Sequence record: SRR20825019_2588
DNA length: 64,000 nucleotides
Strand: one strand, 5' to 3'
The translations under genes were made by a program, and so were the position numbers. The notes beneath the pieces are model-generated. The model worked only from the letters and a program-made list of their open reading frames with translations, was not told the origin of the DNA and did not search any database. Positions 10,312-39,785 of this stretch are shown here, one piece after another. Within the stretch, counting starts at the first letter, position 1. The number at the start of each line of letters is the position of its first letter.

Positions 10312-10617
10312 ATGAATAATAATTTAAAAAAACGCATACAAAACATGTATGTACGGGACTGTATCATGGCCTGGTCGGACATCATTCTACTCTGGCTGGC
10401 TGTGGGCTTCGTCCTCATTAGTATCTTAAGCATTGTCGATGATCCAGTTATTAGATGGGTCATGATTATCTCCAGTGCCTTACTGGTTCTTTTCAATACC
10501 ACGTCAGTCTGGGCTATGACCCATCATTACGCGGAAGACAAGGACTTTATATACGGTCTGGATATCAAGCATCTCGATCAAAATCGGGCAGCTAAAAATG
10601 ATGCAAGAGTCAATTAA
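10312..10617 (+). CDS. Small two-TM membrane protein
   Basis: GAGGA RBS, two hydrophobic segments, first gene of the permease cluster. Confidence 0.8.
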   Translation: MNNNLKKRIQNMYVRDCIMAWSDIILLWLAVGFVLISILSIVDDPVIRWVMIISSALLVLFNTTSVWAMTHHYAEDKDFIYGLDIKHLDQNRAAKNDARVN

Positions 10618-14048: not shown

Positions 14049-14074
14049 CAGTTTTTAAATATTTTTTGATCCAC

Positions 14075-14133
14075 TACTCCCTTGGAAGTACTGCCACAAG
14101 GGAATTATCAAGTTCGTCTTAACACGCTAAGTT
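14075..14133 (+). promoter_or_regulatory. 7-2-7 box plus sigma70 promoter of the APC permease
   Basis: TACTCCC-TT-GGAAGTA, 14 bp, TTATCA-N17-TAAGTT. Confidence 0.7.
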
Positions 14134-15739: not shown

Positions 15740-15928
15740 ATGGCCTTGTTAAAGCTGTCCCGAATCCTGAAGTCTGTTTATAACAGTCTGCTCAGCCTGA
15801 TGGTTAACGGCTGGATGTCGGGCAGTTACACCGGGGCAGTCCTGACCGGTGAATATCATTCGGTCAACACCGTGCCGGGTACAGATTCAGGCTTGCCTGG
15901 TCCGGATTCACAGCTTGAGCTGATTTGA
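15740..15928 (+). CDS. Possible 62-aa small protein
   Basis: ATG 1 nt after the permease stop, AGGTGAG RBS-like sequence, ends just before a terminator; no recognisable motif. Confidence 0.4.
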   Translation: MALLKLSRILKSVYNSLLSLMVNGWMSGSYTGAVLTGEYHSVNTVPGTDSGLPGPDSQLELI

Positions 15929-15943
15929 TTCAGCCATAGCCAT

Positions 15944-15977
15944 TGCCGGTATCGAAGTTGGATACCGGCATTTTTTT
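15944..15977 (+). terminator. Rho-independent terminator
   Basis: TGCCGGTATC-GAAGTTG-GATACCGGCA followed by T7. Confidence 0.85.
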
Positions 15978-15986
15978 AGCGTTTCG

Positions 15987-16045
15987 TAACCCCTAGGTAG
16001 TAATCCTTCTTTGGAATTGTTGGCAGGGGTGACGGAATAGATAAT
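15987..16045 (+). promoter_or_regulatory. 7-2-7 box plus sigma70 promoter of the leader RNA/folE2 operon
   Basis: TAACCCC-TA-GGTAGTA, 14 bp, TTGTTG-N17-GATAAT. Confidence 0.75.
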
Positions 16046-16051
16046 GAAACT

Positions 16052-16200
16052 GAAGCTGCTTTGATTAAAGCGATTCAGCTTCTTCATGGTTATCCTCTAA
16101 CCCGTTCTCTCGTTGGGACGTTGGGGGTGAACTGTCACAGCCGAGCCACTGTTCTCAATGGCATGTGACAAGGCAGTCGACAGTTCACCCTCCTTTTTTT
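16052..16200 (+). ncRNA. Candidate structured leader RNA (riboswitch/attenuator) or sRNA upstream of folE2
   Basis: 5' hairpin 16052-16082; anti-SD/anti-AUG tract 16083-16098; 14-bp stem 16123-16136/16179-16192 plus T7; competing helices. Confidence 0.55.
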
Positions 16201-16252
16201 GGTAACCACGAATAACAACGACTGGAAAGTCTATAAGATAAGGATTAGCGTT

Positions 16253-17059
16253 ATGAACCTGCCGCTCAATACTGGTCTGGAAGATGTTCAGAACACCCCC
16301 GATAAACGCCAGCTGGCTATAGACCAGGTCGGCATCAAATCCTTACGTTACCCGATTTTTTTCCGAAGCGATGAAGCTGGTCCGACCCGCGTGGTGGCTG
16401 ACTTCAGTATGTATGTGCGTTTGCCTCATCATGTGAAAGGCACCCATATGTCACGCTTTATTGAACTGCTGGAGAGACCCGAACAGGTTTTTGCAGTCAA
16501 TCATATGCATACCTTCATGCGTGACATGCTGGATCTGCTGGAAGCGGAAAACGGCCATGTCGAAATGCGCTTCCCGTTCTTTCTGGCCAAGTCGGCACCG
16601 GTGTCTGGTGTCACTAGCATGATGGACTACGATGTGACGCTCAAGGCTGATATTGGAGAGCGCTTTGCACTGACGGTCAAAGCCGAGATCCCGGTGACCA
16701 GCCTCTGCCCCTGTTCCAAGAAGATTTCTGCCTATGGTGCTCACAATCAGCGTTCGCTGGTCACGGTGGAAGTTGAAGTTGATGACAGCATGAGCCTGGA
16801 TCAATTAATTCGAATGGTTGAAGAACAGGCATCAAGTCAGCTCTATGGCCTGCTCAAGCGTCCGGATGAGAAATTCGTCACCGAATATGCCTATGACAAT
16901 CCGAAGTTCGTGGAAGACCTGGTTAGGGATATCGCCGGTGCGCTGGACAAAGCCTCTGCCATTGGCGGCTTCCGGGTCGAGTGCGAAAACTTCGAATCGA
17001 TTCACAATCACTCTGCCTACGCCATGATTGATCGTTTGTCAGGAGACCGTCATGAATAG
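16253..17059 (+). CDS. folE2: GTP cyclohydrolase I type IB (FolE2)
   Basis: KGTHMSRF, VTSLCPCSK, GAHNQRS, LLKRPDEK.VTE.AYDNPKFVED, ESIHNHSAYA; start moved to ATG 16253 (AGGA RBS). Confidence 0.93.
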   Translation: MNLPLNTGLEDVQNTPDKRQLAIDQVGIKSLRYPIFFRSDEAGPTRVVADFSMYVRLPHHVKGTHMSRFIELLERPEQVFAVNHMHTFMRDMLDLLEAENGHVEMRFPFFLAKSAPVSGVTSMMDYDVTLKADIGERFALTVKAEIPVTSLCPCSKKISAYGAHNQRSLVTVEVEVDDSMSLDQLIRMVEEQASSQLYGLLKRPDEKFVTEYAYDNPKFVEDLVRDIAGALDKASAIGGFRVECENFESIHNHSAYAMIDRLSGDRHE

Positions 17060-18212
17060 TCCGACCCTCCCCTTTGCGCCCAAACCGGGCCAGACTGCGA
17101 TTTCACCGATTGAGGACATCATCGCCGATATCCGTCAGGGCAAAATGGTGGTACTGATGGATGATGAGGATCGTGAAAATGAAGGCGATCTGATCATGGC
17201 TGCGGATGCGGTTGATGCGGCGGCCATTAATTTTATGGCGATGCATGGCCGTGGTCTGATTTGTCTTACACTGACAGAAGCGCGCTGCCGTCAGCTTGAA
17301 TTACCGTTGATGGTAAAAAATAACGGGACTGGACTGGGCACTAACTTTACCGTGTCGATTGAAGCGGCTGAGGGCGTCACAACCGGTATTTCCACGGCAG
17401 ACAGGGCCAGAACGGTTCAGGCAGCAGTCGCCAAAAATGCGCAAGCAACAGATATTGTCAGCCCCGGTCATATTTTCCCGCTTCAGGCGCAACAGGGCGG
17501 GGTGCTGGCTCGAGCCGGTCATACCGAGGCCGGTTGTGACCTGAGTAAACTGGCCGGGCGCGAACCCGCGTCCGTTATCTGTGAAATCATGAATGATGAC
17601 GGCAGCATGGCAAGACTGCCGGACTTGCTAAAGTTTGCAGATAAACATCAGCTCAAAGTGGGCACGATTGCCGACCTGATCGAATACCGTCGTCGCAATG
17701 AGCGTCTGGTTGCTTTTGAAGATCGTCGTTATATCAGCACTTTGTACGGCAGCTTTGAGATGGTCAGCTATCGTGATCTCACTTCAGACTTAACCCATGT
17801 GGCGCTGATTTGTGGTGAGCCACAAACTCAGAATGCCACCCTGGTACGGGTTCATGCCCCGATCAATAACTTTGATTTTCTGGATAACCAGCGTCACGGT
17901 CACACCTGGAGCGTCACCGAAGCCATGCAGCATATACAGGCAGCCGGTGAAGGGGTCCTGTTGCTGATCAAGGGCGATGAACAGGAATGGCAGGCACAGG
18001 TTGAAGGCGAACGTCACTTTGAAGAAGAGTATGTGCTCAAGCACTACGGCATTGGTGCCCAGATTCTCAAAGAGTTAGGCATCGGCCGTATGCGGTTGAT
18101 GACCTGGCCCAGAAAACTGCCCTCGATGAGTGGTTTTGGCCTTTCCGTCGAGGAGTATGTGCTGCCTGAAGATTTGAGCGAACGGGCGCTGGCTGATTTA
18201 TCACGGGCTTAG
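17052..18212 (+). CDS. ribB: 3,4-dihydroxy-2-butanone-4-phosphate synthase fused to a degenerate GTP cyclohydrolase II domain (RibBX type)
   Basis: [37 protein letters not shown]. The C-terminal domain lacks the Zn-binding Cys motif of RibA. AGGAG RBS before ATG 17052. Confidence 0.9.
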
Positions 18213-18221
18213 GAGAGCCGG

Positions 18222-19286
18222 ATGAGCAGCTATAGCGATTACGCGCTTCAGCAACATTTTGTACGTCACCAGCGCTGGGGCTTCAGATGGGCGTTGTGGA
18301 CCGCCGTGTTATGGGGTGCCTGGTATATTCCGGGCACGGCCTTATGGTACGAATATCCCTATAACAGCATCAGTCCGGATAATCAGGGACAACGCCTGGT
18401 TGCTACGGCGGTAATGACCTGGATTCATGCGCTGGCCGTTTTCGTTTTCCTTGCAGTCTGGAATGGCAGCCTCGGCAAGCTCAGAGATTACGGCCGTACC
18501 CTGGTGCGGTTTCGGAAGATTTCCAAATGGTATGCACTGGCCTCTTTGTTCGGCGGTCCCATGGCAATATTCGGCTCCTACATGGCAATGGGATTCGTCG
18601 GGCCAGTGTTTGCCGCCGTGACATCACTGTTCTATCCGGTCGTTGGGGCCGTGATAGCCCGGCTCTGGTATCAGGAAAAAATTTCCGCACAGGCGGCACT
18701 GGGCATGGCGATCATTATCATGGGTGGCGTCGTGATTTACGGACCGGGTTTCTTCGGTGAACTGGGTGATGACGGCAGTTATGTCTGGCTCGGTTATCTC
18801 GGTGGGATTCTCTCCGCTATCGGCTGGGGGGCAGAGGGTGCGGTCGCTTCCAGAGCGATGGATGTCACCGATCCGGATGTCGGTATCCAGTGCCGTTTCA
18901 GTTTTGAAATTTTATTCTGGGGATTACTGGTGCTGCCCGCGGTGATGGTGTTGACCGATCAACCGGTCTGGTTTCTGCTAAAAGAAACCCTGCTGACGCC
19001 TGTTGCCATGACCTGGATGTTGCTGGCATCGGTCTGTCATGCATTCTGCTATACCGCATTCTACAAGAGCTTTTCTCTGATTGGCGTCAGCCGGGGTGAA
19101 GCCATCGGTAATCTTTACGGTGTGTTTGCCGTGATCTTTGTGGCACTGGTCACGCTGGAATTACCGGAATGGTATTTTCTGCTCGGTCTGGCTTTAACCA
19201 TTATCGGTAGTTTTGTGATGTTCCGGGAACCTGCAGAGGCAGTGGCTCAACTGCGTTCGGTCACCGAAACGCCGGGGGCCGGATGA
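18222..19286 (+). CDS. DMT (EamA-like) transporter, candidate trimethylamine permease
   Basis: About 10 TM segments in two EamA-like halves; GGP.A..SY..AMG and W..EKIS motifs; AGGAG RBS. Confidence 0.8.
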   Translation: MSSYSDYALQQHFVRHQRWGFRWALWTAVLWGAWYIPGTALWYEYPYNSISPDNQGQRLVATAVMTWIHALAVFVFLAVWNGSLGKLRDYGRTLVRFRKISKWYALASLFGGPMAIFGSYMAMGFVGPVFAAVTSLFYPVVGAVIARLWYQEKISAQAALGMAIIIMGGVVIYGPGFFGELGDDGSYVWLGYLGGILSAIGWGAEGAVASRAMDVTDPDVGIQCRFSFEILFWGLLVLPAVMVLTDQPVWFLLKETLLTPVAMTWMLLASVCHAFCYTAFYKSFSLIGVSRGEAIGNLYGVFAVIFVALVTLELPEWYFLLGLALTIIGSFVMFREPAEAVAQLRSVTETPGAG

Positions 19287-19555
19287 AGCTGCATCACAAA
19301 GGCTATATGCTGGTGTTGCTGGAACGAAAGCAACTGGCGTGGGACGATGTGCTGATTGGCGAGGCGATGCAGGAATATCAACTGTCCGGTCGTTACTGGC
19401 TGAATCATTTTCGCATCATCCTTGATGAACTGGCCTCAGCCGGTTTGATAAGCCGTGAAGATCACCGGCTGGATAATAGGACCGATCGGCTGATATTCCA
19501 GTATGCTTTATCCGGTTTCGGCCGCCAGCGTATGCAAGATACCGGATTGCTGTAA
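19283..19555 (+). CDS. Small cytoplasmic protein, winged-helix-like, coupled to the DMT transporter
   Basis: ATGA overlap; LDELASAGLI...YALSGFGR resembles a wHTH wing pattern. Confidence 0.75.
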   Translation: MKLHHKGYMLVLLERKQLAWDDVLIGEAMQEYQLSGRYWLNHFRIILDELASAGLISREDHRLDNRTDRLIFQYALSGFGRQRMQDTGLL

Positions 19556-19569
19556 ATCTCGTTAAGCAA

Positions 19570-19612
19570 GTGAGGACGACCTCACCGTGCTATTTTCGTC
19601 GGGGACGGCCCC
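19570..19612 (+). ncRNA. Guanidine-II (mini-ykkC) riboswitch
   Basis: Two hairpins with ACGR loops, GTGAGG-ACGA-CCTCAC and GGGG-ACGG-CCCC, immediately before the AAGGAG RBS of an SMR gene. Confidence 0.92.
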
Positions 19613-19626
19613 ATAAGGAGTGAATC

Positions 19627-19941
19627 ATGGCTTGGGTGGTACTGGTGATAGCAGGATTACTGGAAGTGGTCTGGGCAGTGGGACTGAAATATTCGGACGG
19701 CTTTACCCGGTTGTGGCCGAGTGTATTTACTGTGCTCACCATGTTGCTGAGTTTCTGGCTGCTGGGACTGGCGATGCGTTCACTGCCGGTCGGTACGGCT
19801 TATGGTGTCTGGGTCGGCATTGGTGCAGTGGGCACGGCGATTTACGGCATTATGTTTCTGGCTGAACCGTCGAGTTTTGTCAGGCTTGCCAGTGTTTGTC
19901 TGATTTTGACCGGCATAGTGGGTTTGAAAGTATCAGCCTAG
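19627..19941 (+). CDS. gdx: SMR-family guanidinium exporter Gdx (SugE)
   Basis: [46 protein letters not shown]; 104 aa; riboswitch upstream. Confidence 0.92.
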
Positions 19942-21907: not shown

Positions 21908-21986
21908 CCCAATCGACTTGTGCCGCTGACTCATGGTCCGCTTTCAATACACTTCAGGCTGACATACTCCCGAAAATGCCTTTTTC

Positions 21987-22045
21987 TACTACCTAGGAGG
22001 TAACCCCTCTTAGGAATTGTTGAGCCTCTCCCCAGTTTAGACAAT
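21987..22045 (+). promoter_or_regulatory. 7-2-7 box plus sigma70 promoter of the tmd operon
   Basis: TACTACC-TA-GGAGGTA, 14 bp, TTGTTG-N17-GACAAT; extra half-site TACTCCC at 21965. Confidence 0.78.
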
Positions 22046-22047
22046 AG

Positions 22048-24273
<2,226 letters not shown>

Positions 24274-24365: not shown

Positions 24366-26501
24366 ATGAATGAAGCACAAGAAATAACCCGAATTCTATT
24401 CCAAGGTTTTCAGACCTCATCCGTTTATCTGTTCTATGTGATTGGCTATACGGCCATCGCGATCTTTCTCTATGGCTGTTATGTGCAGGTTAGAAAGTAT
24501 CGTCGCGGCCAACCGGATGCCGCCTGGGGTGAATTCCTGGCGCGTTTCTGGGACATGACCAAAACCATGATGACGCATCGCACTATCAAACGTCGCGATA
24601 AAGCGGCGGGTAAAGCGCATGCAGGGATATTTTTCGGTTTTGTCCTGCTGTTCATCGGCACCGCCACCATTACGCTGGAATACGACATTCTCGAACCCTT
24701 GTTCGGGATTACATTCTGGTATGGCGATTTCTATCTTTGGTTCTCGCTGATATTGGATATTGCAGGTGTGGCAGCTATTGCCGGCCTGATTTACATGATG
24801 TATCGCCGTAAATGGCTCAAATTACCCAAACTGGATTACACACGTCCTGATCGTGAACCCGGCGATCCGGACTATGACCGCAGTGCCTACCGTCGTGAAG
24901 ACTGGGCATTTCTGTGGGTCTTTATCACTATTCTCATTACCGGTTTCCTGCTGGAAGCGTCCCGTCTGATTTGGCTGATGGAGGATCCGACTGTCTGGGA
25001 GTACCGCTGGTGGTCACCGGTCGGCGCAAGCATTGCGCATCTGTTTTATGGCCTCGGTATGGGCCCGGAAGCAGCAGGCGACTTCCGTACCGGCCTGTGG
25101 TGGTTCCACGGCATCCTGGCGCTGGCCTTTGTCGCGCTGATCCCTTTTACCAAGGTCAAACATATCTTTACCGCCTCGGCGTCTTTGATGTTCCGTGATC
25201 CGATGGCCGGTAAACGACTGCCGACCGTGCCGGAAGACCAGGAAGACATCGGTGTTAAAACCATTACTGATTTTACCTGGAAGCAACTGCTTAATCTGGA
25301 TGCCTGCACCAAGTGTGGTCGTTGTCATGAAGCCTGCCCGGCCAATGCGGTGGGGGCACCGTTGTCGCCACGCGATGTGATTCTGTCGCTGCGTGAATTT
25401 GCCAACAACGCGCTGGAAAAAAAGGAACTGCCGGACGAGGTCGAGCTCGACGTTCACGGCAAGGATGTTGGCCAGGTGTTTATGGAAACTCTGTGGTCGT
25501 GCCGGACCTGTATGGCCTGTGTCGAAATCTGCCCGGTGGCGGTAGAGCATGTGCCCATTATTGTGCAGATGCGCCGTAAGCTGGTCGATGAAGGCAATAT
25601 GGAACCTATCCTGCAGAAAACGCTGCAATCGGTCCACAAAAACGGTAACTCGATGGGCGAGTCCAAGCGTAAACGCGCCAAATGGACTAAAGATCTGTCA
25701 TTTGAGATCAAAGACGCCCGTAAAGAACCGGTTGATGTGATGTGGTTCGTAGGTGACTATGCCTCGTTCGACCCACGTAACCAGGTGGTCACCAAATCGT
25801 TTGCCAAACTGATGCAGCAGGCCGGTGTCGATTTCGGATTGCTCTACGAAGCCGAAATGAATGCCGGTAATGATGTGCGTCGTGTCGGTGAGGAAGGGCT
25901 TTATGAATTCCTGGCCAATTCCAATATCAGCACGCTGGAACAATGCGAATTTAACTCGATTGTCACCACCGATCCGCATTCTTTCAACACCATCCGTAAT
26001 GAATACCCGGACTTTGGTGGTGAGTTTGAAATTCAGCATTACACGACCGTACTCAAACATCTGTTTGAAGAAGGCAAGCTGAAAATCAAGAAAAAACTCG
26101 ACTACCGTGTCACTTTCCATGATCCCTGTCATCTGGGCCGTTACAACAAAGGCTATGACGCGCCACGTGAACTGATCGAAATGATTGGTTGCGAACTGGT
26201 GGAAATGGATCGTAACCGCGATAACTCCTTCTGCTGTGGTGCCGGTGGTGGCCGTATCTGGATTCCGGATCCGGTGGGTCTGGAAAAACCATCGGAAAAC
26301 CGTATTCGTGAAGCGGGTGCGATCGACGATCTGGATGTCTTTATCGTCTCCTGTCCTAAAGATCTGACGATGTTTGAGGATGCACGTAAAACAGCGGGTT
26401 TCGAAGATAAGTTCGTGGTCAAGGAATTGATTGAACTTATCACCGAGTGTGTCGAGTTCGATATTGAAGAGCCGGAAGACGATGACACAGCTGCCGCTTG
26501 A
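24366..26501 (+). CDS. Membrane-bound Fe-S oxidoreductase (NarI-like cytochrome b + 2x[4Fe-4S] + CCG domains); probable ETF:quinone oxidoreductase of the FadF/EMO/EtfD type
   Basis: N-terminal TM region with His residues; CTKCGRCHEACP and CRTCMACVEICP; FHDPCHLGR, FCCGAGGG, SCP. Confidence 0.85.
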   Translation: MNEAQEITRILFQGFQTSSVYLFYVIGYTAIAIFLYGCYVQVRKYRRGQPDAAWGEFLARFWDMTKTMMTHRTIKRRDKAAGKAHAGIFFGFVLLFIGTATITLEYDILEPLFGITFWYGDFYLWFSLILDIAGVAAIAGLIYMMYRRKWLKLPKLDYTRPDREPGDPDYDRSAYRREDWAFLWVFITILITGFLLEASRLIWLMEDPTVWEYRWWSPVGASIAHLFYGLGMGPEAAGDFRTGLWWFHGILALAFVALIPFTKVKHIFTASASLMFRDPMAGKRLPTVPEDQEDIGVKTITDFTWKQLLNLDACTKCGRCHEACPANAVGAPLSPRDVILSLREFANNALEKKELPDEVELDVHGKDVGQVFMETLWSCRTCMACVEICPVAVEHVPIIVQMRRKLVDEGNMEPILQKTLQSVHKNGNSMGESKRKRAKWTKDLSFEIKDARKEPVDVMWFVGDYASFDPRNQVVTKSFAKLMQQAGVDFGLLYEAEMNAGNDVRRVGEEGLYEFLANSNISTLEQCEFNSIVTTDPHSFNTIRNEYPDFGGEFEIQHYTTVLKHLFEEGKLKIKKKLDYRVTFHDPCHLGRYNKGYDAPRELIEMIGCELVEMDRNRDNSFCCGAGGGRIWIPDPVGLEKPSENRIREAGAIDDLDVFIVSCPKDLTMFEDARKTAGFEDKFVVKELIELITECVEFDIEEPEDDDTAAA

Positions 26502-27867
26502 CATCGCCATGCCGGAAACGGCGACGGAACTGGTCGAAGCGGCCGTCGAGCAGGGCGATATCTACAGTGCTGCGGCAGTCTTCGGGATTGCCGATAAAAA
26601 TCAGCGCGATGCCCTCAAAGCGATTCTTTGCGGTCGCCGACGTGATGCGCTCAAGCTGGCACGCTGGGAGCATACACCGGCACAAGTCCTGGCCGTTTTG
26701 GCCGGGCTGGATGATGATGCCATCCGCTTGCGGGTGGAGAAGAATCCGGCGACCCATAGTCAGACCCTGGCTGATCTGTTCAATCATCAGGACAGTCAGG
26801 ATCTGATTGGGCTGGTTGCCCAACATGGTCATACATCGGCATCGGTTCTGTTTACGATTGTTGAGCAGGTCAGTAGTGGCGCTATCATCCGTGCTGCAGC
26901 CAGAAACCCCAATGCCAGCAATGAAGTGCTGGCGGTTATCGAAGCCCGCTTCGGTAATAAATTTGATGCCGAACTGGCCAGTCATGAAAACAGTTCGGCA
27001 AATATCCTTAAGCGGCTTTATGAACGAGGTAATCACTTCGTTCAGGCGGCAGTAGCGGCACATGCTCACTGTCCGCAGGCAGTGCTTGAGCAGGCAGTCC
27101 GTCATGACGATGTTGTGGTGGTGCGTCATGCAGCGACCAATCCAACATTAGCCGTCAAACTGCTGGGATATCTTGCCGGTCATCCTGATTATTCCGTACG
27201 ACGGGCGATTGCCTCACAACAACGGTTGTCGACCACACTGGCCAAAGAACTGGCGCAGGACAGTTCTGATTATGTCAGGCGCGCTGTGGCAGCACGTCAG
27301 GACCTCACTGCCGATATTATCGGGCTGTTGATTCATGATGCTGATCACTGGGTCAGACAATGGGTGGCACTGAGCAGCAAATTATCCGAGCAACAGTTAC
27401 AACTGCTGGCAGAGGATGAGGACAAAGAAGTCCGCCGCGCTGTCGCCAGAAATGGCAAAACCCCACCGCAGTTACTGCAACTGCTGGCAAAGGACAAACA
27501 AACCTGGGTTCGGGCCGCTGTAGCCAATCAGCCCAACACACCGCCTGAGATTCTGTCGGTGCTGGCAGATGAAGAAGAGGTGGATGTGTTAGCGGCAGTC
27601 GCACACAACCCGAATACAGCCCAGCCCATATTGCAGCGTTTGACGCATTCAGTTCTGGCTGATGTGCGTCGCGGGGTAGCGACAAACAAAGCCGCTAAAC
27701 GCGAAACGCTGCTGCCTTTAATTGAGGACCCCTTTTATCTGAACCGTTTGATGCTGGTCGGCAATCCGGTGCTCAGCCCTGAAGATAAGTGGCGTCTGTC
27801 TGATGATCCTGATCCAGCAGTACGCTTCACCCTGTTTTCCTGGTTTTCCAGGCAATACCAGCAGTAA
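26482..27867 (+). CDS. Leucine-rich-repeat-variant / HEAT-like repeat protein
   Basis: About 24-aa repeats L..LA.D....VR.AVA.NP.TP; start at ATG 26482 or 26509. Confidence 0.8.
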   Translation: MTQLPLDIAMPETATELVEAAVEQGDIYSAAAVFGIADKNQRDALKAILCGRRRDALKLARWEHTPAQVLAVLAGLDDDAIRLRVEKNPATHSQTLADLFNHQDSQDLIGLVAQHGHTSASVLFTIVEQVSSGAIIRAAARNPNASNEVLAVIEARFGNKFDAELASHENSSANILKRLYERGNHFVQAAVAAHAHCPQAVLEQAVRHDDVVVVRHAATNPTLAVKLLGYLAGHPDYSVRRAIASQQRLSTTLAKELAQDSSDYVRRAVAARQDLTADIIGLLIHDADHWVRQWVALSSKLSEQQLQLLAEDEDKEVRRAVARNGKTPPQLLQLLAKDKQTWVRAAVANQPNTPPEILSVLADEEEVDVLAAVAHNPNTAQPILQRLTHSVLADVRRGVATNKAAKRETLLPLIEDPFYLNRLMLVGNPVLSPEDKWRLSDDPDPAVRFTLFSWFSRQYQQ

Positions 27868-27915
27868 ATCACTGCACCAAAAAGCTGATGTAGACAGCAA
27901 ATTAGGAGAAATAGC

Positions 27916-28713
27916 ATGAAAATTTTAGTTGCAGTCAAAGAAGTTGCATCGCTCGATGAAGACTTTGAAATTCGTGACGATCAACTGGATGTAGACGAGG
28001 ATTTCCTGCTTTATGAGCTGAACGAATGGGATGACTTTTCCCTGGAAGAAGCCATGAGCATCAAAGAAAGATCCGATACCGAAGTGGAAGTGGTAGTCGT
28101 CTCGGTGGGTCCGGAACAGGTCGAAGAAAGCCTCAGAAAATGCCTTGCCAAGGGCGCTGATCGGGCGATCAGAGTCTGGAGCGATGAAATGGAAGGCTCT
28201 GATTCAATCACTGTCGGACGTATTCTCGCAGCCGTCGCTGAGCAAGAGAAACCGGACATGATCTTTGCCGGCGTGCAATCTTCTGATAATGCCGATGCCT
28301 CCACCGGTATTGCACTTGCTTCCTATCTGAATTGGCCTCACGCAGCGGTCGTGGCCGGACTTGATTACACCCCGGGCAGCAATAAAGCGACCGCCAGCCG
28401 TGAACTCGAAGGCGGTTTGGGACAGGAAGTAGAAATCAGCTGTCCAGCCGTTTTGACGATTCAGCTGGGTATTAACACACCGCGTTATGCGTCACTGCGC
28501 GGCATTAAGCAGGCAGCGGCCAAACCGATTGATGAAGTCAGTTTGTCCGATCTGGGTCTGACAGCAGAAGAAGTGGGTGCCGATGCGGCGTTCTCACGGG
28601 TTCGTCGCATGTACATTCCTGAAAAAGGTATGGCCACCATGATTGACGGTACTACCGCAGAGCAGGCCGCCAAGCTGGCTCAAATTATCAAAGAATTCAA
28701 GGGAGAAGCGTAA
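27916..28713 (+). CDS. etfB: Electron transfer flavoprotein beta subunit (TMADH-partner type)
   Basis: MKILVAVK, LNEWDDFSLEEA, LAKGADRA, RELEGG, PRYASLRGIK. Confidence 0.95.
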   Translation: MKILVAVKEVASLDEDFEIRDDQLDVDEDFLLYELNEWDDFSLEEAMSIKERSDTEVEVVVVSVGPEQVEESLRKCLAKGADRAIRVWSDEMEGSDSITVGRILAAVAEQEKPDMIFAGVQSSDNADASTGIALASYLNWPHAAVVAGLDYTPGSNKATASRELEGGLGQEVEISCPAVLTIQLGINTPRYASLRGIKQAAAKPIDEVSLSDLGLTAEEVGADAAFSRVRRMYIPEKGMATMIDGTTAEQAAKLAQIIKEFKGEA

Positions 28714-29672
28714 TGAAAACCATTCTTGTCGTGGCGGAAAGCCGCCAAAATGAACTCCGTCCGATCTCGCTTGAAGTGATCAGTGCAGCGCAATCGCTGC
28801 GTGAAGCTGATGACAAAGTCGTGGTTGCCATCATTGGTCAGCAGCCTGAATCCTATGTCGATGACCTGTCATTGAAAGGTGTCGATGAAATCGTTGCTGT
28901 AAAAGTCAGCTCCGAAGACTTCGATGCTGATATTCACGAAGCTGCCGTCACTTCCCTGATGGAAAGCTACACACCGGAAGTGGTGCTGTTGCCTCACTCG
29001 GTCGACAGCCTCGGCTTTGCACCGACACTGGCCCGCAAAGGTAACTATGGTTTTGCCACCGACGTTTTCAATCTGGAATATGATGGTCAGGATCTGGTTG
29101 TTACCCGTGCCGGTTACAACGAAAAAGTACATGTTGAAATGGACTTTCCAGGTAAGGACTGTGTGATTCTGACCATCCGTTCCAGCGTGTTCAAAGCGGT
29201 TGAAGAGTCCGGTAGTCCTGCTACCACCAGTCTGGATATGACGAATATCGGCAGTCGTTGCCAGAATGTCCGTTATGTCGAAGCCGAAGGCGCGGATGAC
29301 ATTGATATCACCTCGGTTGATTTCATCATGTCGATTGGCCGTGGCATCGGTGAGGAAAGCAACGTCGACGAGTTCCGTGAAATGGCGGATCTGTCCGGTG
29401 CGACCCTGTGCTGCTCACGACCGATCGCCGATTCCGGCTGGTTACCCAAATCCAGACAGGTCGGTCAATCCGGCAAGGTTGTTGGGAACTGCAAGTTGTA
29501 TGTCGCAATGGGGATTTCCGGTTCCATCCAGCATATGGCAGGGATGAAACATGTCCCTACCATCGTCGCGGTCAATACCGATCCGGGCGCGTCGATTTTC
29601 ACCATTGCCAAATACGGCATTGTCGGCGATATCTTCGAGATTGAAGAAGAGCTGCGTACCCACTTCGAGTAG
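28713..29672 (+). CDS. etfA: Electron transfer flavoprotein alpha subunit
   Basis: GRGIG, CSRPIAD.GW..RQVGQSGK, GISGSIQHMAGMK; TAATG coupling to etfB. Confidence 0.95.
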   Translation: MKTILVVAESRQNELRPISLEVISAAQSLREADDKVVVAIIGQQPESYVDDLSLKGVDEIVAVKVSSEDFDADIHEAAVTSLMESYTPEVVLLPHSVDSLGFAPTLARKGNYGFATDVFNLEYDGQDLVVTRAGYNEKVHVEMDFPGKDCVILTIRSSVFKAVEESGSPATTSLDMTNIGSRCQNVRYVEAEGADDIDITSVDFIMSIGRGIGEESNVDEFREMADLSGATLCCSRPIADSGWLPKSRQVGQSGKVVGNCKLYVAMGISGSIQHMAGMKHVPTIVAVNTDPGASIFTIAKYGIVGDIFEIEEELRTHFE

Positions 29673-29741
29673 CGTAGCAAACCACCAACCCGGCGGCCGG
29701 ATCTGAAGTCTGTCCGCCGGGTCTCACACAGGGATTCCCCC

Positions 29742-30218
29742 ATGGCGACAGATTTAAACAGTGCGGTCACCCGCTCTGATGTGGACGGTAGCGGTATGAG
29801 AATCGGCATTGTCCGTGCGCGCTTTAACCGGGATATTGGTGATGGCCTGCTTAGCGCCTGCCTGGATCAGCTTCGACAGAATGGTGTTGCAGAGCTGGAT
29901 ATCGTTATCAAACAGGTTCCCGGGGCACTTGAAGTCCCCTTTATGCTGAATGAAATGGCACTGACCGGTGGCTTTGATGGGCTGATTGCACTGGGCTGCA
30001 TTATCCGCGGGGAAACCTATCATTTCGAAGTGGTCGCCAATGAGTCAGCTCGCTGCATTTCTAATATTCAGCTTGATACCGGCATTCCCATTGCCAACGC
30101 CATTCTCACCACTGAGAACCAACACCAGGCTGAACAGAGAATGACAATAAAAGGTGCCGAGGCGGCTCAGGTTGTACTGGAAATGGTGCAGGAACTGCAG
30201 AGCCTGTGCCAGTTATAA
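29742..30218 (+). CDS. ribH: 6,7-dimethyl-8-ribityllumazine synthase
   Basis: ARFN, VPGALEVP, ALGCIIRGETYHFEVV, ILTTEN..QA..R. Confidence 0.95.
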   Translation: MATDLNSAVTRSDVDGSGMRIGIVRARFNRDIGDGLLSACLDQLRQNGVAELDIVIKQVPGALEVPFMLNEMALTGGFDGLIALGCIIRGETYHFEVVANESARCISNIQLDTGIPIANAILTTENQHQAEQRMTIKGAEAAQVVLEMVQELQSLCQL

Positions 30219-30290
30219 AACACCGGCAGGCCAGCATTGATCCGATAGCGTTTTTGTTTGGCAACAATGGTGATCTCAGCGCATGGGCGC

Positions 30291-30349
30291 TACTCAAAAA
30301 GGAGTACGCCATGATGGGAATTTCAGCACAGGACTGATTCCGATATGTT
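30291..30349 (+). promoter_or_regulatory. 7-2-7 box plus sigma70 promoter of the dmm operon
   Basis: TACTCAA-AA-AGGAGTA, 14 bp, TTTCAG-N17-TATGTT. Confidence 0.72.
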
Positions 30350-36532: not shown

Positions 36533-36577
36533 GATTACCTTTCATTTCAGACCTTGGTCAGAAGAGCGCAATTAGTC

Positions 36578-38401
36578 ATGGCGGCAAAGCGAAATATTAT
36601 TCTCAGTTTCCTGAACAGCTTCAGCCGGCGGGCACTCTATGCCAAGTTGATTATGTTGTTACTGTGTGTCGCCACCAGCATTTTGTTGATGCAGGCGGGC
36701 ACCATCTTTCTGCTAGATTATATCCCTTCAAGCCAGTCAGCCATAAACAAAATCAACGAACAGAAGCTTTACTGGCACAGGCAACTCTCCCATGTTCAGG
36801 CGATACAGTTACAGGAAGCCAGTGCGACTTTTAAGTCAATGCAGCGACACTTTCTGGATACAGCGGATCCCGAAGTGCTATGGATGCTACGTCAGGACAA
36901 CCCGGAAGTGGTGGCGGCAGTCCACAAAGTAGAGCGTGAGCAGAAAAACTTTATTGATGTGGCCCAGTTTAATCTGCGGGTGACCGCGCAGTTACGCGTC
37001 GCTGAGCGGGTAGCCAGTGCCTACGATGAACTCGAAACTGCGCTGCATAACGACAGCAAAATCAAACAATCCATCATCGGCTTGCTGCAGGCTATCAGCC
37101 TGATTTTTGTGCTCAGTTGCATTCTGGTGCTGGCTGTCAGTGCCAGGAAATTGCTGGTAGAGCGTATCGATAATTTATTGGGCTTCATTCACCTAAAAAC
37201 CGGCGAAAAGCCTGAACGACGTGCTGTAGATGAGTTTGCTGAACTGGAACACCGCGTTTCTGAACTTTCTGCACAGATGGAAAGTTATGAATCAGAAGTC
37301 ACCTGGGCTCACCGAACCAGTGAACACATGCGGGTGTTGATTCGCGCCCAGGACTTTCTGCTTCAATTCATTGAAACCGCCAGTGAGGATGTACTCAGTG
37401 AACGCACCTTATTGAAATTCCTGTATTCACTGGAACGTACCATGAACTTCGCTAATGCGGCACTGATATACACTGATGATGCCGCTGTGATTGCCAGGGA
37501 ACGTATTATCTTTTCCCACCATAAACCGCCAGTCCTGAGTAATCAGATCTTCGATGAATTAATGCAGTCCGGCGTGACGACCTTTGACTATCGATCTGCA
37601 GACGATGATCAACTGAGTTGTCTGGGCGTGACTTTCTCGGGTGTCAGTAACGGCATTGGTGTGTTGCTGGTTGAAATGGAGCAGGGACGGTTTCTGGAAG
37701 ACTCTGAAATAAGAGTGTTGGAAATTACCGCTCGTTTGCTGGCCATGACAGCCAAGTATCAGAGTCATGATGAAGAGGGCAGGCGACTCGCGGTGCTCGA
37801 AGAACGGGCTTCGATTGCACGTGAATTGCATGACTCACTGGCGCAGTCACTGTCGTTCATGAAAATACAGGTGGCGCGTTTACAGTCCAAAACCAATGAC
37901 AGTGAACTGGCTCCGGTAGTACAGGAGTTGCGGGAAGGGCTGGACAATGCCTATCGTGAATTGCGCGAGCTGCTGACCACGTTTCGGGTTCATATGGATC
38001 TGCGAGGGCTGGGCTACGCCATCCAGGCGACAATTGATGAGTTCTCGCAGCGTTCGCAACTGAATATCAGTTTTGATAACCGCCTGGTCAATTGTCGTCT
38101 GACCGTCAACGAAGAATTTCATATCCTGCACGTGGTGCGTGAAGCCCTGTCGAATATTGTTCGCCACTCCGGGGCAAAGAATGTCACGATATTGATGCAG
38201 CTACAGGCCAGTGGTGAGGTCGAATTGATAATTGATGATGATGGTGTGGGTTACACACCGGCATCGAGCACCTATGATCACCATGGACAGGTGATAATGA
38301 AAGAGCGGGCCCAGTCGCTGGGCGGTGAGGTCGAGGTTATGGCAAGGCGGTATGGCGGCACGCGAGTGCACCTGTATTTCATGCCGAAATTAGCACAATA
38401 A
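36578..38401 (+). CDS. NarX/NarQ-like sensor histidine kinase (HisKA_3) with a degenerate P-box
   Basis: Two TMs, HAMP/GAF-like region, ERASIARELHDSLAQSLS, REALSNIVRHS, DDGVG, HG..IMKERA; P-box region reads AINKINEQKLYWHR. Confidence 0.88.
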   Translation: MAAKRNIILSFLNSFSRRALYAKLIMLLLCVATSILLMQAGTIFLLDYIPSSQSAINKINEQKLYWHRQLSHVQAIQLQEASATFKSMQRHFLDTADPEVLWMLRQDNPEVVAAVHKVEREQKNFIDVAQFNLRVTAQLRVAERVASAYDELETALHNDSKIKQSIIGLLQAISLIFVLSCILVLAVSARKLLVERIDNLLGFIHLKTGEKPERRAVDEFAELEHRVSELSAQMESYESEVTWAHRTSEHMRVLIRAQDFLLQFIETASEDVLSERTLLKFLYSLERTMNFANAALIYTDDAAVIARERIIFSHHKPPVLSNQIFDELMQSGVTTFDYRSADDDQLSCLGVTFSGVSNGIGVLLVEMEQGRFLEDSEIRVLEITARLLAMTAKYQSHDEEGRRLAVLEERASIARELHDSLAQSLSFMKIQVARLQSKTNDSELAPVVQELREGLDNAYRELRELLTTFRVHMDLRGLGYAIQATIDEFSQRSQLNISFDNRLVNCRLTVNEEFHILHVVREALSNIVRHSGAKNVTILMQLQASGEVELIIDDDGVGYTPASSTYDHHGQVIMKERAQSLGGEVEVMARRYGGTRVHLYFMPKLAQ

Positions 38402-38429
38402 TAAAAGTCAGATTTTTGAGATAAATATC

Positions 38430-39068
38430 ATGCATAACATCATAAGAGTATTGATAATCGATGATCACCCTTTATTCAGAAAAGGGGTGAGTCAGATTAT
38501 TTCGGATGACCCCAATTTTGAAGTGGTGGGTGAGGCGGCTTCGGGCCAGGAAGGACTGGATCTGGGAGAGGAGCTACAACCCGATCTGGTTCTGCTGGAC
38601 TTGAATATGAAAGGGATGGACGGTCTGGAAACCCTGCGTCGTTTTAAACAGACCGACTTGCTGGCACGTTATGTCATTTTGACAGTGTCTGATTCTGAAG
38701 ACGACCTGATGGAGGCGCTGAAATCGGGGGCTGACGGTTATCTTCTCAAAGATATGGAACCGGAAGATCTTCGTGCCAACCTGATGAAAGCGTCTGTTGG
38801 TGTAACGGTATTACAGGACAGCCTGACCGATGTATTGAAAAAAGCGCTGACGGAACCTGATACCAAAGTGAGCGTGGCCTCCGCCGGCCTGACTGATCGT
38901 GAGAACGAGATTCTGGATTGTCTGGCTGAAGGAATGAATAATAAGAACATTGCCCGCAAGCTGGGTATCAGCGATACCACGGTGAAAGTGCATATCAAGA
39001 ATATTTTGAGAAAGCTGAATTTAACCAGCCGTCTGGAAGCGGCAGTGTGGAAACATCAACAGAAATAA
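38430..39068 (+). CDS. NarL-family response regulator (REC + LuxR HTH)
   Basis: IDDHPLFRKG, LLDLNM, GYLLKDMEP, LTDRE.EIL...ISDTTVKVHIK. Confidence 0.93.
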   Translation: MHNIIRVLIIDDHPLFRKGVSQIISDDPNFEVVGEAASGQEGLDLGEELQPDLVLLDLNMKGMDGLETLRRFKQTDLLARYVILTVSDSEDDLMEALKSGADGYLLKDMEPEDLRANLMKASVGVTVLQDSLTDVLKKALTEPDTKVSVASAGLTDRENEILDCLAEGMNNKNIARKLGISDTTVKVHIKNILRKLNLTSRLEAAVWKHQQK

Positions 39069-39515: not shown

Positions 39516-39574
39516 ATTAAATCTGCATTAATAGCGACCAACAATTATTAAGAAGGCTTACTCTTTTAGGGGTA
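39516..39574 (-). promoter_or_regulatory. 7-2-7 box plus sigma70 promoter of the cupin gene
   Basis: Minus strand: TACCCCT-AA-AAGAGTA, 14 bp, TTGTTG-N17-TTTAAT. Confidence 0.75.
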
Positions 39575-39785
39575 GTCAATGCTTTGATAGTGGCTTCTAG
39601 AATCTATTGACGCTAGATATTGGCAAACTGCGATAGTCAGTGATGAGGAAGCTAACTGATGCGCTTTTGCCAAAACCCAAAAGTTTGAACAAAGTCGATT
39701 TATGCGATTCACTATCTCGAATTCGCGCACCCAGTCTGAACATCACTATTCCTGAACCTGCTCCTGCACTTGGATTGGCTTACTG

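Follow-up and report, generated by a model that had tools for sequence, protein, structure and literature searches.

The window analysed here is a 64,000-nucleotide stretch (sequence record SRR20825019_2588) from a Methylophaga host; its FolE2 shares 96% identity with the FolE2 of a Methylophaga metagenome-assembled genome (MAG). On its plus strand lies a structured 5' leader followed by folE2 and ribBA, and an earlier note on this DNA had singled out the leader as a candidate riboswitch or attenuator. The features at the locus, together with 2 further copies of its promoter, are as follows.

15944-15977, plus strand: terminator of the preceding permease/small open reading frame (ORF) unit, a 10-bp stem (15944-15970) followed by a T-run.
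15985-16046, plus strand: conserved promoter module (gapless 34-promoter alignment; 49.5 bits with model R1, see below), with an upstream box at approximately 15985-16019 and, separated from each other by 17 nt, a weak -35 (16017-16022) and a -10 GATAAT (16040-16045).
16052-16082, plus strand: 5' hairpin P1 at the predicted transcript start (fold and RNAalifold).
16083-16101, plus strand: pyrimidine-rich tract directly 3' of P1 (alignments, listings).
16103-16120, plus strand: small hairpin P2 with a conserved loop block (fold; 6 pairs kept in 7 of 7 sequences of leader group G1, introduced below).
16123-16200, plus strand: predicted intrinsic terminator, a hairpin (16123-16192) with a structured apical part and T7 at 16194-16200.
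16201-16252, plus strand: 52-nt spacer up to the folE2 start, with a small conserved hairpin (16220-16231) and a Shine-Dalgarno sequence (SD) at 16240-16244.
16253-17059, plus strand: folE2 (GTP cyclohydrolase IB), island paralogue (Pfam PF02649, 310 bits; NCBIfam FolE2 equivalog, 287.7 against a cutoff of 215).
17028-18212, plus strand: ribBA, encoding 3,4-dihydroxy-2-butanone 4-phosphate (DHBP) synthase plus a diverged GTP cyclohydrolase II-like domain (NF010626, 549.8 bits against a cutoff of 513).
21984-22046, plus strand: second copy of the promoter module, ahead of trimethylamine dehydrogenase and without the leader terminator (R1, 39.3 bits).
39522-39576, minus strand: third copy of the promoter module, ahead of the cupin gene 39477-39136 (R1, 29.8 bits).

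The coordinates of ribBA are those of the longest ORF, and the real start may lie later; its second domain scores just 45 with TIGR00505 (ribA), for which the cutoff is 206. Together the genes form an accessory folE2-ribBA(-EamA-orf90) operon within a methylated-amine catabolic island.

We gathered 42 copies of the leader, some near-identical, from FolE2 loci, metagenome contigs and family genomes. They occur in Methylophaga (gammaproteobacteria) and Methylophilaceae (betaproteobacteria), hereafter gamma and beta, and comprise 4 gamma groups (G1 to G4, 73-155 nt) and several beta groups (93-202 nt). The earlier note's picture of a leader with its own promoter and intrinsic terminator before folE2-ribBA is supported, and the leader is conserved. 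Gamma and beta copies have nearly no sequence in common beyond the layout, which consists of a 5' hairpin, a pyrimidine tract, a hairpin, a G-rich terminator arm and a U-run. The tract is the sole RNA sequence feature found in every group of both classes, and would be the likeliest handle for a factor should read-through be modulated.

The leader goes with one gene arrangement only. Among 80 genome loci with FolE2 relatives, box and terminator leader are present at 16 of the 17 where ribBA directly follows folE2 and at none of the 63 where it does not, most of which are Methylophilaceae housekeeping folE2 genes just downstream of dxs with a plain promoter. Apart from tandem second copies, every leader copy has the extra folE2-ribBA pair directly downstream and never the housekeeping folE2. 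Covariance model R2, built on the gamma 5' module, gives 24 matches, which come from 19 of 83 family genomes and lie without exception at the folE2 locus. In 5 related genomes, the folE2 is a second paralogue in 4 and the ribB in all 5, indicating that the leader controls accessory rather than housekeeping cofactor genes. The functional link to pterin and flavin supply suggested earlier is sound.

Consensus scans of the window and 2 beta loci list no plus-strand promoter between the U-run and folE2, and the spacer from terminator to folE2 measures 46-61 nt in the gamma copies listed. In one lineage (L201, genome G052), leader and terminator are missing and the box promoter lies approximately 75 nt upstream of folE2, showing that this promoter serves folE2.

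The minimum free energy of 16052-16260 is -69.4 kcal/mol (z = -4.38), and none of 200 shuffled sequences folds as well. Both sequence and fold confirm the 5' hairpin at 16052-16082 and the 14-bp helix 16123-16136/16179-16192 that had been described before; the helix contains one G-U pair, its large loop is a 42-nt structured apical region, and the T-run behind it is a C followed by T7. The proposed start of transcription near 16052 agrees with the conserved -10 hexamer (16040-16045), which aligns without gaps in 34 of 34 promoters. A TGTCACA/TGTGACA repeat (16133-16139/16164-16170), thought to compete with the terminator stem, is indeed present, but close relatives, L081 for one, have by eye not retained it.

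The end of the leader has the marks of an intrinsic (Rho-independent) terminator: a GC-rich hairpin that folds at -36.7 kcal/mol, a tail of 7 to 9 U residues, and compensatory changes, which affect 7 pairs among 7 G1 sequences (alignment A5) and 2 pairs among 10 beta sequences (alignment A4). An analogous hairpin with a U-run is found in 42 of the 42 leader copies, and its 5' arm is a G-run in all groups. A simple terminator scanner misses it because the loop is longer than 8 nt. Within the 5' module, P1 has 92% of cells paired across 20 gamma leaders, with a mostly conserved stem sequence and a variable loop. The loop block of P2 is conserved in groups G1 and G2; the 3' arm of P2 and the first bases of the terminator form a direct repeat (2 repeats at 16112-16127), and in G1 leaders a loop motif occurs twice (16105-16110 and 16156-16161). 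On the upstream side, the terminator at 15944-15977 would shield the leader promoter from transcription entering from the preceding unit.

The absence of a match to the flavin mononucleotide (FMN), tetrahydrofolate (THF), ZTP or preQ1 riboswitches, previously judged by eye, holds in a scan against Rfam. With 4,227 models at gathering score, the only match in the whole window is a guanidine-II riboswitch at 19568-19612; at E <= 10, region 15900-16320 gives only 3 eukaryotic miRNA/snoRNA noise matches well below their cutoffs, and the leaders of 12 related loci have no match at gathering score. The leader is therefore an RNA family outside the catalogued Rfam families, of a kind that is already known: a terminator-containing 5' leader or a leader-derived small RNA. 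We found no account of this leader in the literature searched, including passages of PMC11526790, whose supplement has 11 riboswitches of M. nitratireducenticrescens that might bear on novelty. The family is common to marine Methylophaga and freshwater or soil Methylophilaceae, that is, to 2 proteobacterial classes, and it comes with a clear physiological frame.

That frame is provided by the promoter. The 34 promoters align gaplessly over 65 columns (alignment A2); they share 2 TAAYCC-like repeats, spaced 14 bp apart, and a weak -35 that 17 nt separate from a GAWAAT -10. R1, a sequence-only promoter model, scored 3 sites in the window. The second of these, 21984-22046, lies approximately 35 nt upstream of 22081-24273, which encodes trimethylamine dehydrogenase (tmd; 1,478 bits over the full length to PDB 1djn). 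Partial or weaker box sites are seen in other promoter regions of the island (14073-14115, 510-527 and 30290-30322). In related gamma and beta genomes, the box precedes tmd, dmmD, ribH-dmmD, an APC permease and mgdA; it is present in 34 of the 83 family genomes, with 1 to 4 clustered sites each. For the best box matches, folE2 lies downstream in 23 of the 30 loci fetched, and the leader promoter is usually the top-scoring box promoter of a genome. By eye, there is no convincing resemblance of the promoter to Fur- or Zur-box consensus sequences.

Apart from tmd, with its electron transfer flavoprotein (ETF), and ribH, the island in the window encodes N-methylglutamate dehydrogenase and synthase, gamma-glutamylmethylamide synthetase, permeases, a dimethylamine monooxygenase, an Amt-family transporter and a NarX/NarL-like two-component pair. 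The region after tmd (24366-30218) holds genes for an Fe-S/CCG protein, an LRV-repeat protein, the ETF beta and alpha subunits and lumazine synthase (ribH), the last being a third cofactor gene embedded in the island. The two-component pair (36554-39068) adjoins the cupin gene 39477-39136, and its regulator is assigned as a NarL equivalog (281.5 bits against a cutoff of 250). Orthologues of this regulator (at least 68% identity) are found in 22 of the 83 genomes, all 22 of which are among the 34 that carry the box, and in the 10 genomes compared its gene lies approximately 0.5 kb from a box. A further 12 box-bearing genomes lack an orthologue, several of them small MAGs or genomes with weak box matches. 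Sites of NarL-family activators are repeated heptamer-like half-sites that overlap the -35 or lie upstream of it, for which the 2 TAAYCC-like repeats may be candidates. The regulator is thus a candidate activator at the box, and the two make up a candidate regulator-site pair for induction by methylated amines, the regulation of which we did not find described in the literature searched.

An island that oxidises trimethylamine, dimethylamine and methylamine relies on flavin- and folate-dependent enzymes, and this one brings additional folE2, ribBA and ribH genes of its own, which have a promoter box in common. Among the box-driven units of the island, the terminator-containing leader is confined to folE2-ribBA. 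With about even confidence, we read the leader as a cis-acting element whose terminator throttles accessory cofactor genes placed behind a strong amine-induced promoter, releasing a short RNA in the process. The activator-dependent promoter (weak -35, conserved box and -10), with a box that would also drive tmd and other amine genes, would fire and start transcription near 16052. Most transcripts would end at the strong terminator (16123-16200), setting free an RNA of approximately 150 nt, and the fraction that reads through would become the mRNA for an extra GTP cyclohydrolase IB and DHBP synthase. Folate and flavin cofactors would thereby be supplied to the amine-oxidising enzymes. By stopping most transcripts, the terminator would scale down the cofactor genes relative to the catabolic genes under the same activator. 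This offers a testable model of the way in which bacteria adjust the supply of cofactors to the needs of a catabolic pathway.

In relatives, 2 metatranscriptome contigs run across the terminator and on into folE2 (X4 record 6, 16077-16494; X3 record 2, 15959-16374) and give at most a weak hint at read-through; as assembled contigs with 88-95% likeness, they carry no information on starts, ends or levels and may contain DNA. Several points weigh against the throttling model. Transcript ends are not seen in these assembled, possibly DNA-containing contigs. The terminator is very stable and, with its tail of 7 to 9 U residues, would suit the end of a gene or of a small RNA (sRNA) equally well as an attenuator. 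In the 5' module, no helix that could be supported is as well conserved as the sequence blocks, which points to recognition by some factor. Finally, the tandem copies found in some genomes, several with their own box promoter, are easier to explain if the RNA itself is the product.

Tandem second copies are found in 5 of the 19 genomes with R2 matches (loci L175:333-518 in G002, L186, L180 in G073, L179 in G078 and L220 in G081). In G002 and G072, a second unit of box, promoter, RNA and terminator, with its own box and -10, lies approximately 470 nt upstream; a small ORF related to 15740-15928 of the window follows it and sits between the leader copies. The second unit in G073 also has its own box and -10; approximately 50 nt, free of any ORF, separate its end from the next box. 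G078 and G081 have a full unit, then a partial copy without box or pyrimidine tract, and then folE2. Bases 1-217 of L220 are masked as N, which hides the box of the first G081 copy and accounts for the missing R1 match there. Ahead of the partial copies at L179 and L220, the spacer holds a sequence that by eye resembles an ordinary TTGACA-type promoter; the consensus scan did not list one.

These copies fit the RNA being a product in its own right, as do the lost leader in L201, the top-scoring promoter and the stable terminator. The RNA might then act in trans as an sRNA of the methylated-amine regulon: the approximately 150-nt transcript would be the main product, its tract would pair with the SDs of targets, and expression of folE2-ribBA by read-through would be secondary. 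We regard this as unlikely to be the main function, albeit a serious contender. The anatomy is sRNA-like: a 5' hairpin and a conserved unpaired tract lie between a conserved and regulated promoter and a strong terminator that ends in 7 to 9 U residues. By sequence, this promoter and terminator delimit a short transcript. In most genomes, moreover, this promoter is the best of those with the box. Known systems for comparison are premature-termination leaders from which small RNAs also arise, and sRNA genes in tandem, PrrF1/PrrF2 among them; the likeness extends to the tandem duplication with separate promoters, here in some genomes (G002, G072 and G073). Unlike sRNAs of that type, the present RNA always stands ahead of one operon and is never found away from folE2.

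The search for targets also speaks against a trans role as the main function. No conserved target of the tract was found among the 56 start regions of the window. The best candidate in the island, the start of 10312-10617 (rank 2 of 56), is not supported, since the orthologous start regions of genomes G001 to G004 do not track the changed tract in G004. A small gene that lies between lepB and rnc has a near-complement in its upstream region, at the level expected by chance for an SD+ATG-like word; this was discarded, and a long-seed duplex screen returned only implausible full-length duplexes. The complement of the second conserved block has 3 matches within the window, itself included, against 1.46 expected. 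In beta copies, the complement of the tract by eye sets an SD right against an AUG, which is no normal start region. A trans role of the released RNA is compatible with the cis-acting attenuator that we favour, and as an addition to it is a real possibility.

A different proposal is that the leader senses a small molecule. In its wider form, the leader would be a new sensor class, either a small riboswitch or an attenuator that senses a nucleoside triphosphate (NTP) via the G-run of the terminator, and would act as an AND gate with the amine-responsive two-component activator. We think this improbable; if true, production of the GTP-derived cofactors folate and flavin would be coupled to the demand that arises when cells grow on trimethylamine. 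The pyrBI and pyrG leaders of Escherichia coli and Bacillus subtilis are nucleotide-sensing attenuators. They likewise place a leader terminator before genes with a nucleotide substrate, and the G-run in the 5' arm of the present terminator invites the comparison; unlike them, the present leader has no leader peptide and gives no sign of reiterative transcription or pausing; the comparison is an idea only.

In its narrower form, the proposal is a new metabolite riboswitch (for example, for a flavin, a folate or pterin, or GTP), whose ligand would choose between the terminator and an antiterminator formed by the tract and the G-rich arm. The gene context would suit feedback, as both enzymes turn GTP or ribulose 5-phosphate into cofactors. 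The classical FMN riboswitch was not found in any of 5 related genomes (G001, G002, G004, G084 and G086), whereas the same search used as a control found it in 7 of 14 genomes; these 5 genomes have 2 RibB-type genes each and yet no FMN riboswitch. Ligand-controlled read-through would make the leader a new class of riboswitch, found in organisms without the FMN riboswitch; the novelty of such a riboswitch also follows from the absence of an Rfam match. In G002 and G072, a leader copy precedes a different small ORF.

The pairings on which such a switch would depend fare poorly. The tract had been proposed to pair with the SD and AUG of folE2 itself, but the duplex formed by 16083-16101 with that region (-9.8 kcal/mol) ranks only 34th among the 56 start regions of the window, and beta relatives lack a matching SD and, by eye, the pairing. 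On the strength of this rank, we discarded anti-SD control of folE2 as anything special. The alternative helix 16094-16101/16120-16127 does exist, and RNAalifold picks it for the gamma set, but it does not rise above shuffled controls. In the window, the full antiterminator pairing comprises 8+4 pairs (16088-16101 with 16120-16133). Across the collection, the best duplex between pyrimidine tract and G-rich arm outperforms dinucleotide-shuffled versions of the upstream sequence (p <= 0.05) in just 4 of 42 leaders. When the 3' arm of the terminator is left out of the fold, its 5' arm pairs upstream in 30 of 42 leaders, compared to 60% of shuffled controls. The antiterminator pairing thus appears to follow from composition, although it is possible in most copies.

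Covariation in the 5' module, assessed on 20 gamma sequences against shuffles (500 trials), is weak. The distal (antiterminator) and the proximal (P2) pairing each have 80-85% of cells paired, compared to 30-59% with slid partners. Shuffles approach the observed values, attaining the covariation score in 54 of 500 trials with antiterminator plus P2 and in 5 of 500 with the proximal P2, where one pair has genuinely changed on both sides (CG in 10 sequences, UA in 6). No aptamer-like core is shared either: lengths run from 73 to 202 nt, the P2 loops differ between groups, and the short G4 form (73-79 nt) would leave approximately 45 nt for an aptamer. This sets the leader apart from known riboswitch classes, and L201 shows that it can be lost. 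The two-state switch suggested by the earlier note is not supported: its anti-SD and antiterminator pairings are no better than controls, covariation is weak and a common core is missing.

Like the FMN riboswitch (RFN element, RF00050), the leader is a structured 5' element with an intrinsic terminator ahead of a riboflavin-pathway gene, but it is smaller, its architecture is variable, it has no conserved multi-helix core, and the covariance model does not match it. THF, ZTP and preQ1 riboswitches (Rfam 15) also precede folate or GTP-cyclohydrolase-related genes; the scans described above give no match to them, neither at E <= 10 in 15900-16320 nor at gathering score in the 12 loci. We rate a metabolite riboswitch as quite improbable, and beyond the gene context, nothing in the tests run supports either a riboswitch or a protein-dependent switch.

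The latter, in which an RNA-binding protein at the repeats 16112-16127 or at the G1 loop motif would shift the terminator decision, is the least credible of these readings: block 16103-16127 is conserved across G1 and G2 while P1 and the terminator change, is kept even in promoter-less partial copies without the pyrimidine tract, and is not explained by the helices tested, but no RNA-binding protein family was recognised in the island and the motifs are not common to G3, G4 or most beta copies.

Translated ORFs in or across the leader were considered and rejected. For a leader-peptide attenuator of the trp/his type, the window offers a 4-codon ORF (16086-16100) that has no SD and by eye is absent from G2, G4 and beta copies; the ORFs in the terminator loop are, also by eye, not conserved and without SD. 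The complement of the tract resembles an SD+ATG belonging to a 59-residue ORF on the minus strand (15908-16087), but by eye the conserved box lies in one frame in L005 and in another in the window, and inspection of beta copies shows no such ORF.

The surroundings of the operon hold a few further features. A conserved 62-residue ORF without a family match (15740-15928) adjoins the leader on its 5' side. Downstream, an EamA-family transporter and a 90-residue protein without a family match are encoded at 18222-19555; the two form a conserved pair beside folE2-ribBA in gamma and beta genomes, on either strand, and by eye the 90-residue protein may be a small protein of winged-helix type. In a betaproteobacterial metagenome locus (L147:3484-3587, minus strand), a match to Vibrio RNA AS9 (52.6 against a gathering score of 50) falls in or near the folE2 coding sequence and is probably spurious. 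The guanidine-II riboswitch of the window (RF01068) scores 45 bits, where the gathering score is 32, and immediately precedes an SMR-family gene (19627-19941) in the same gene row as folE2-ribBA-EamA-orf90.

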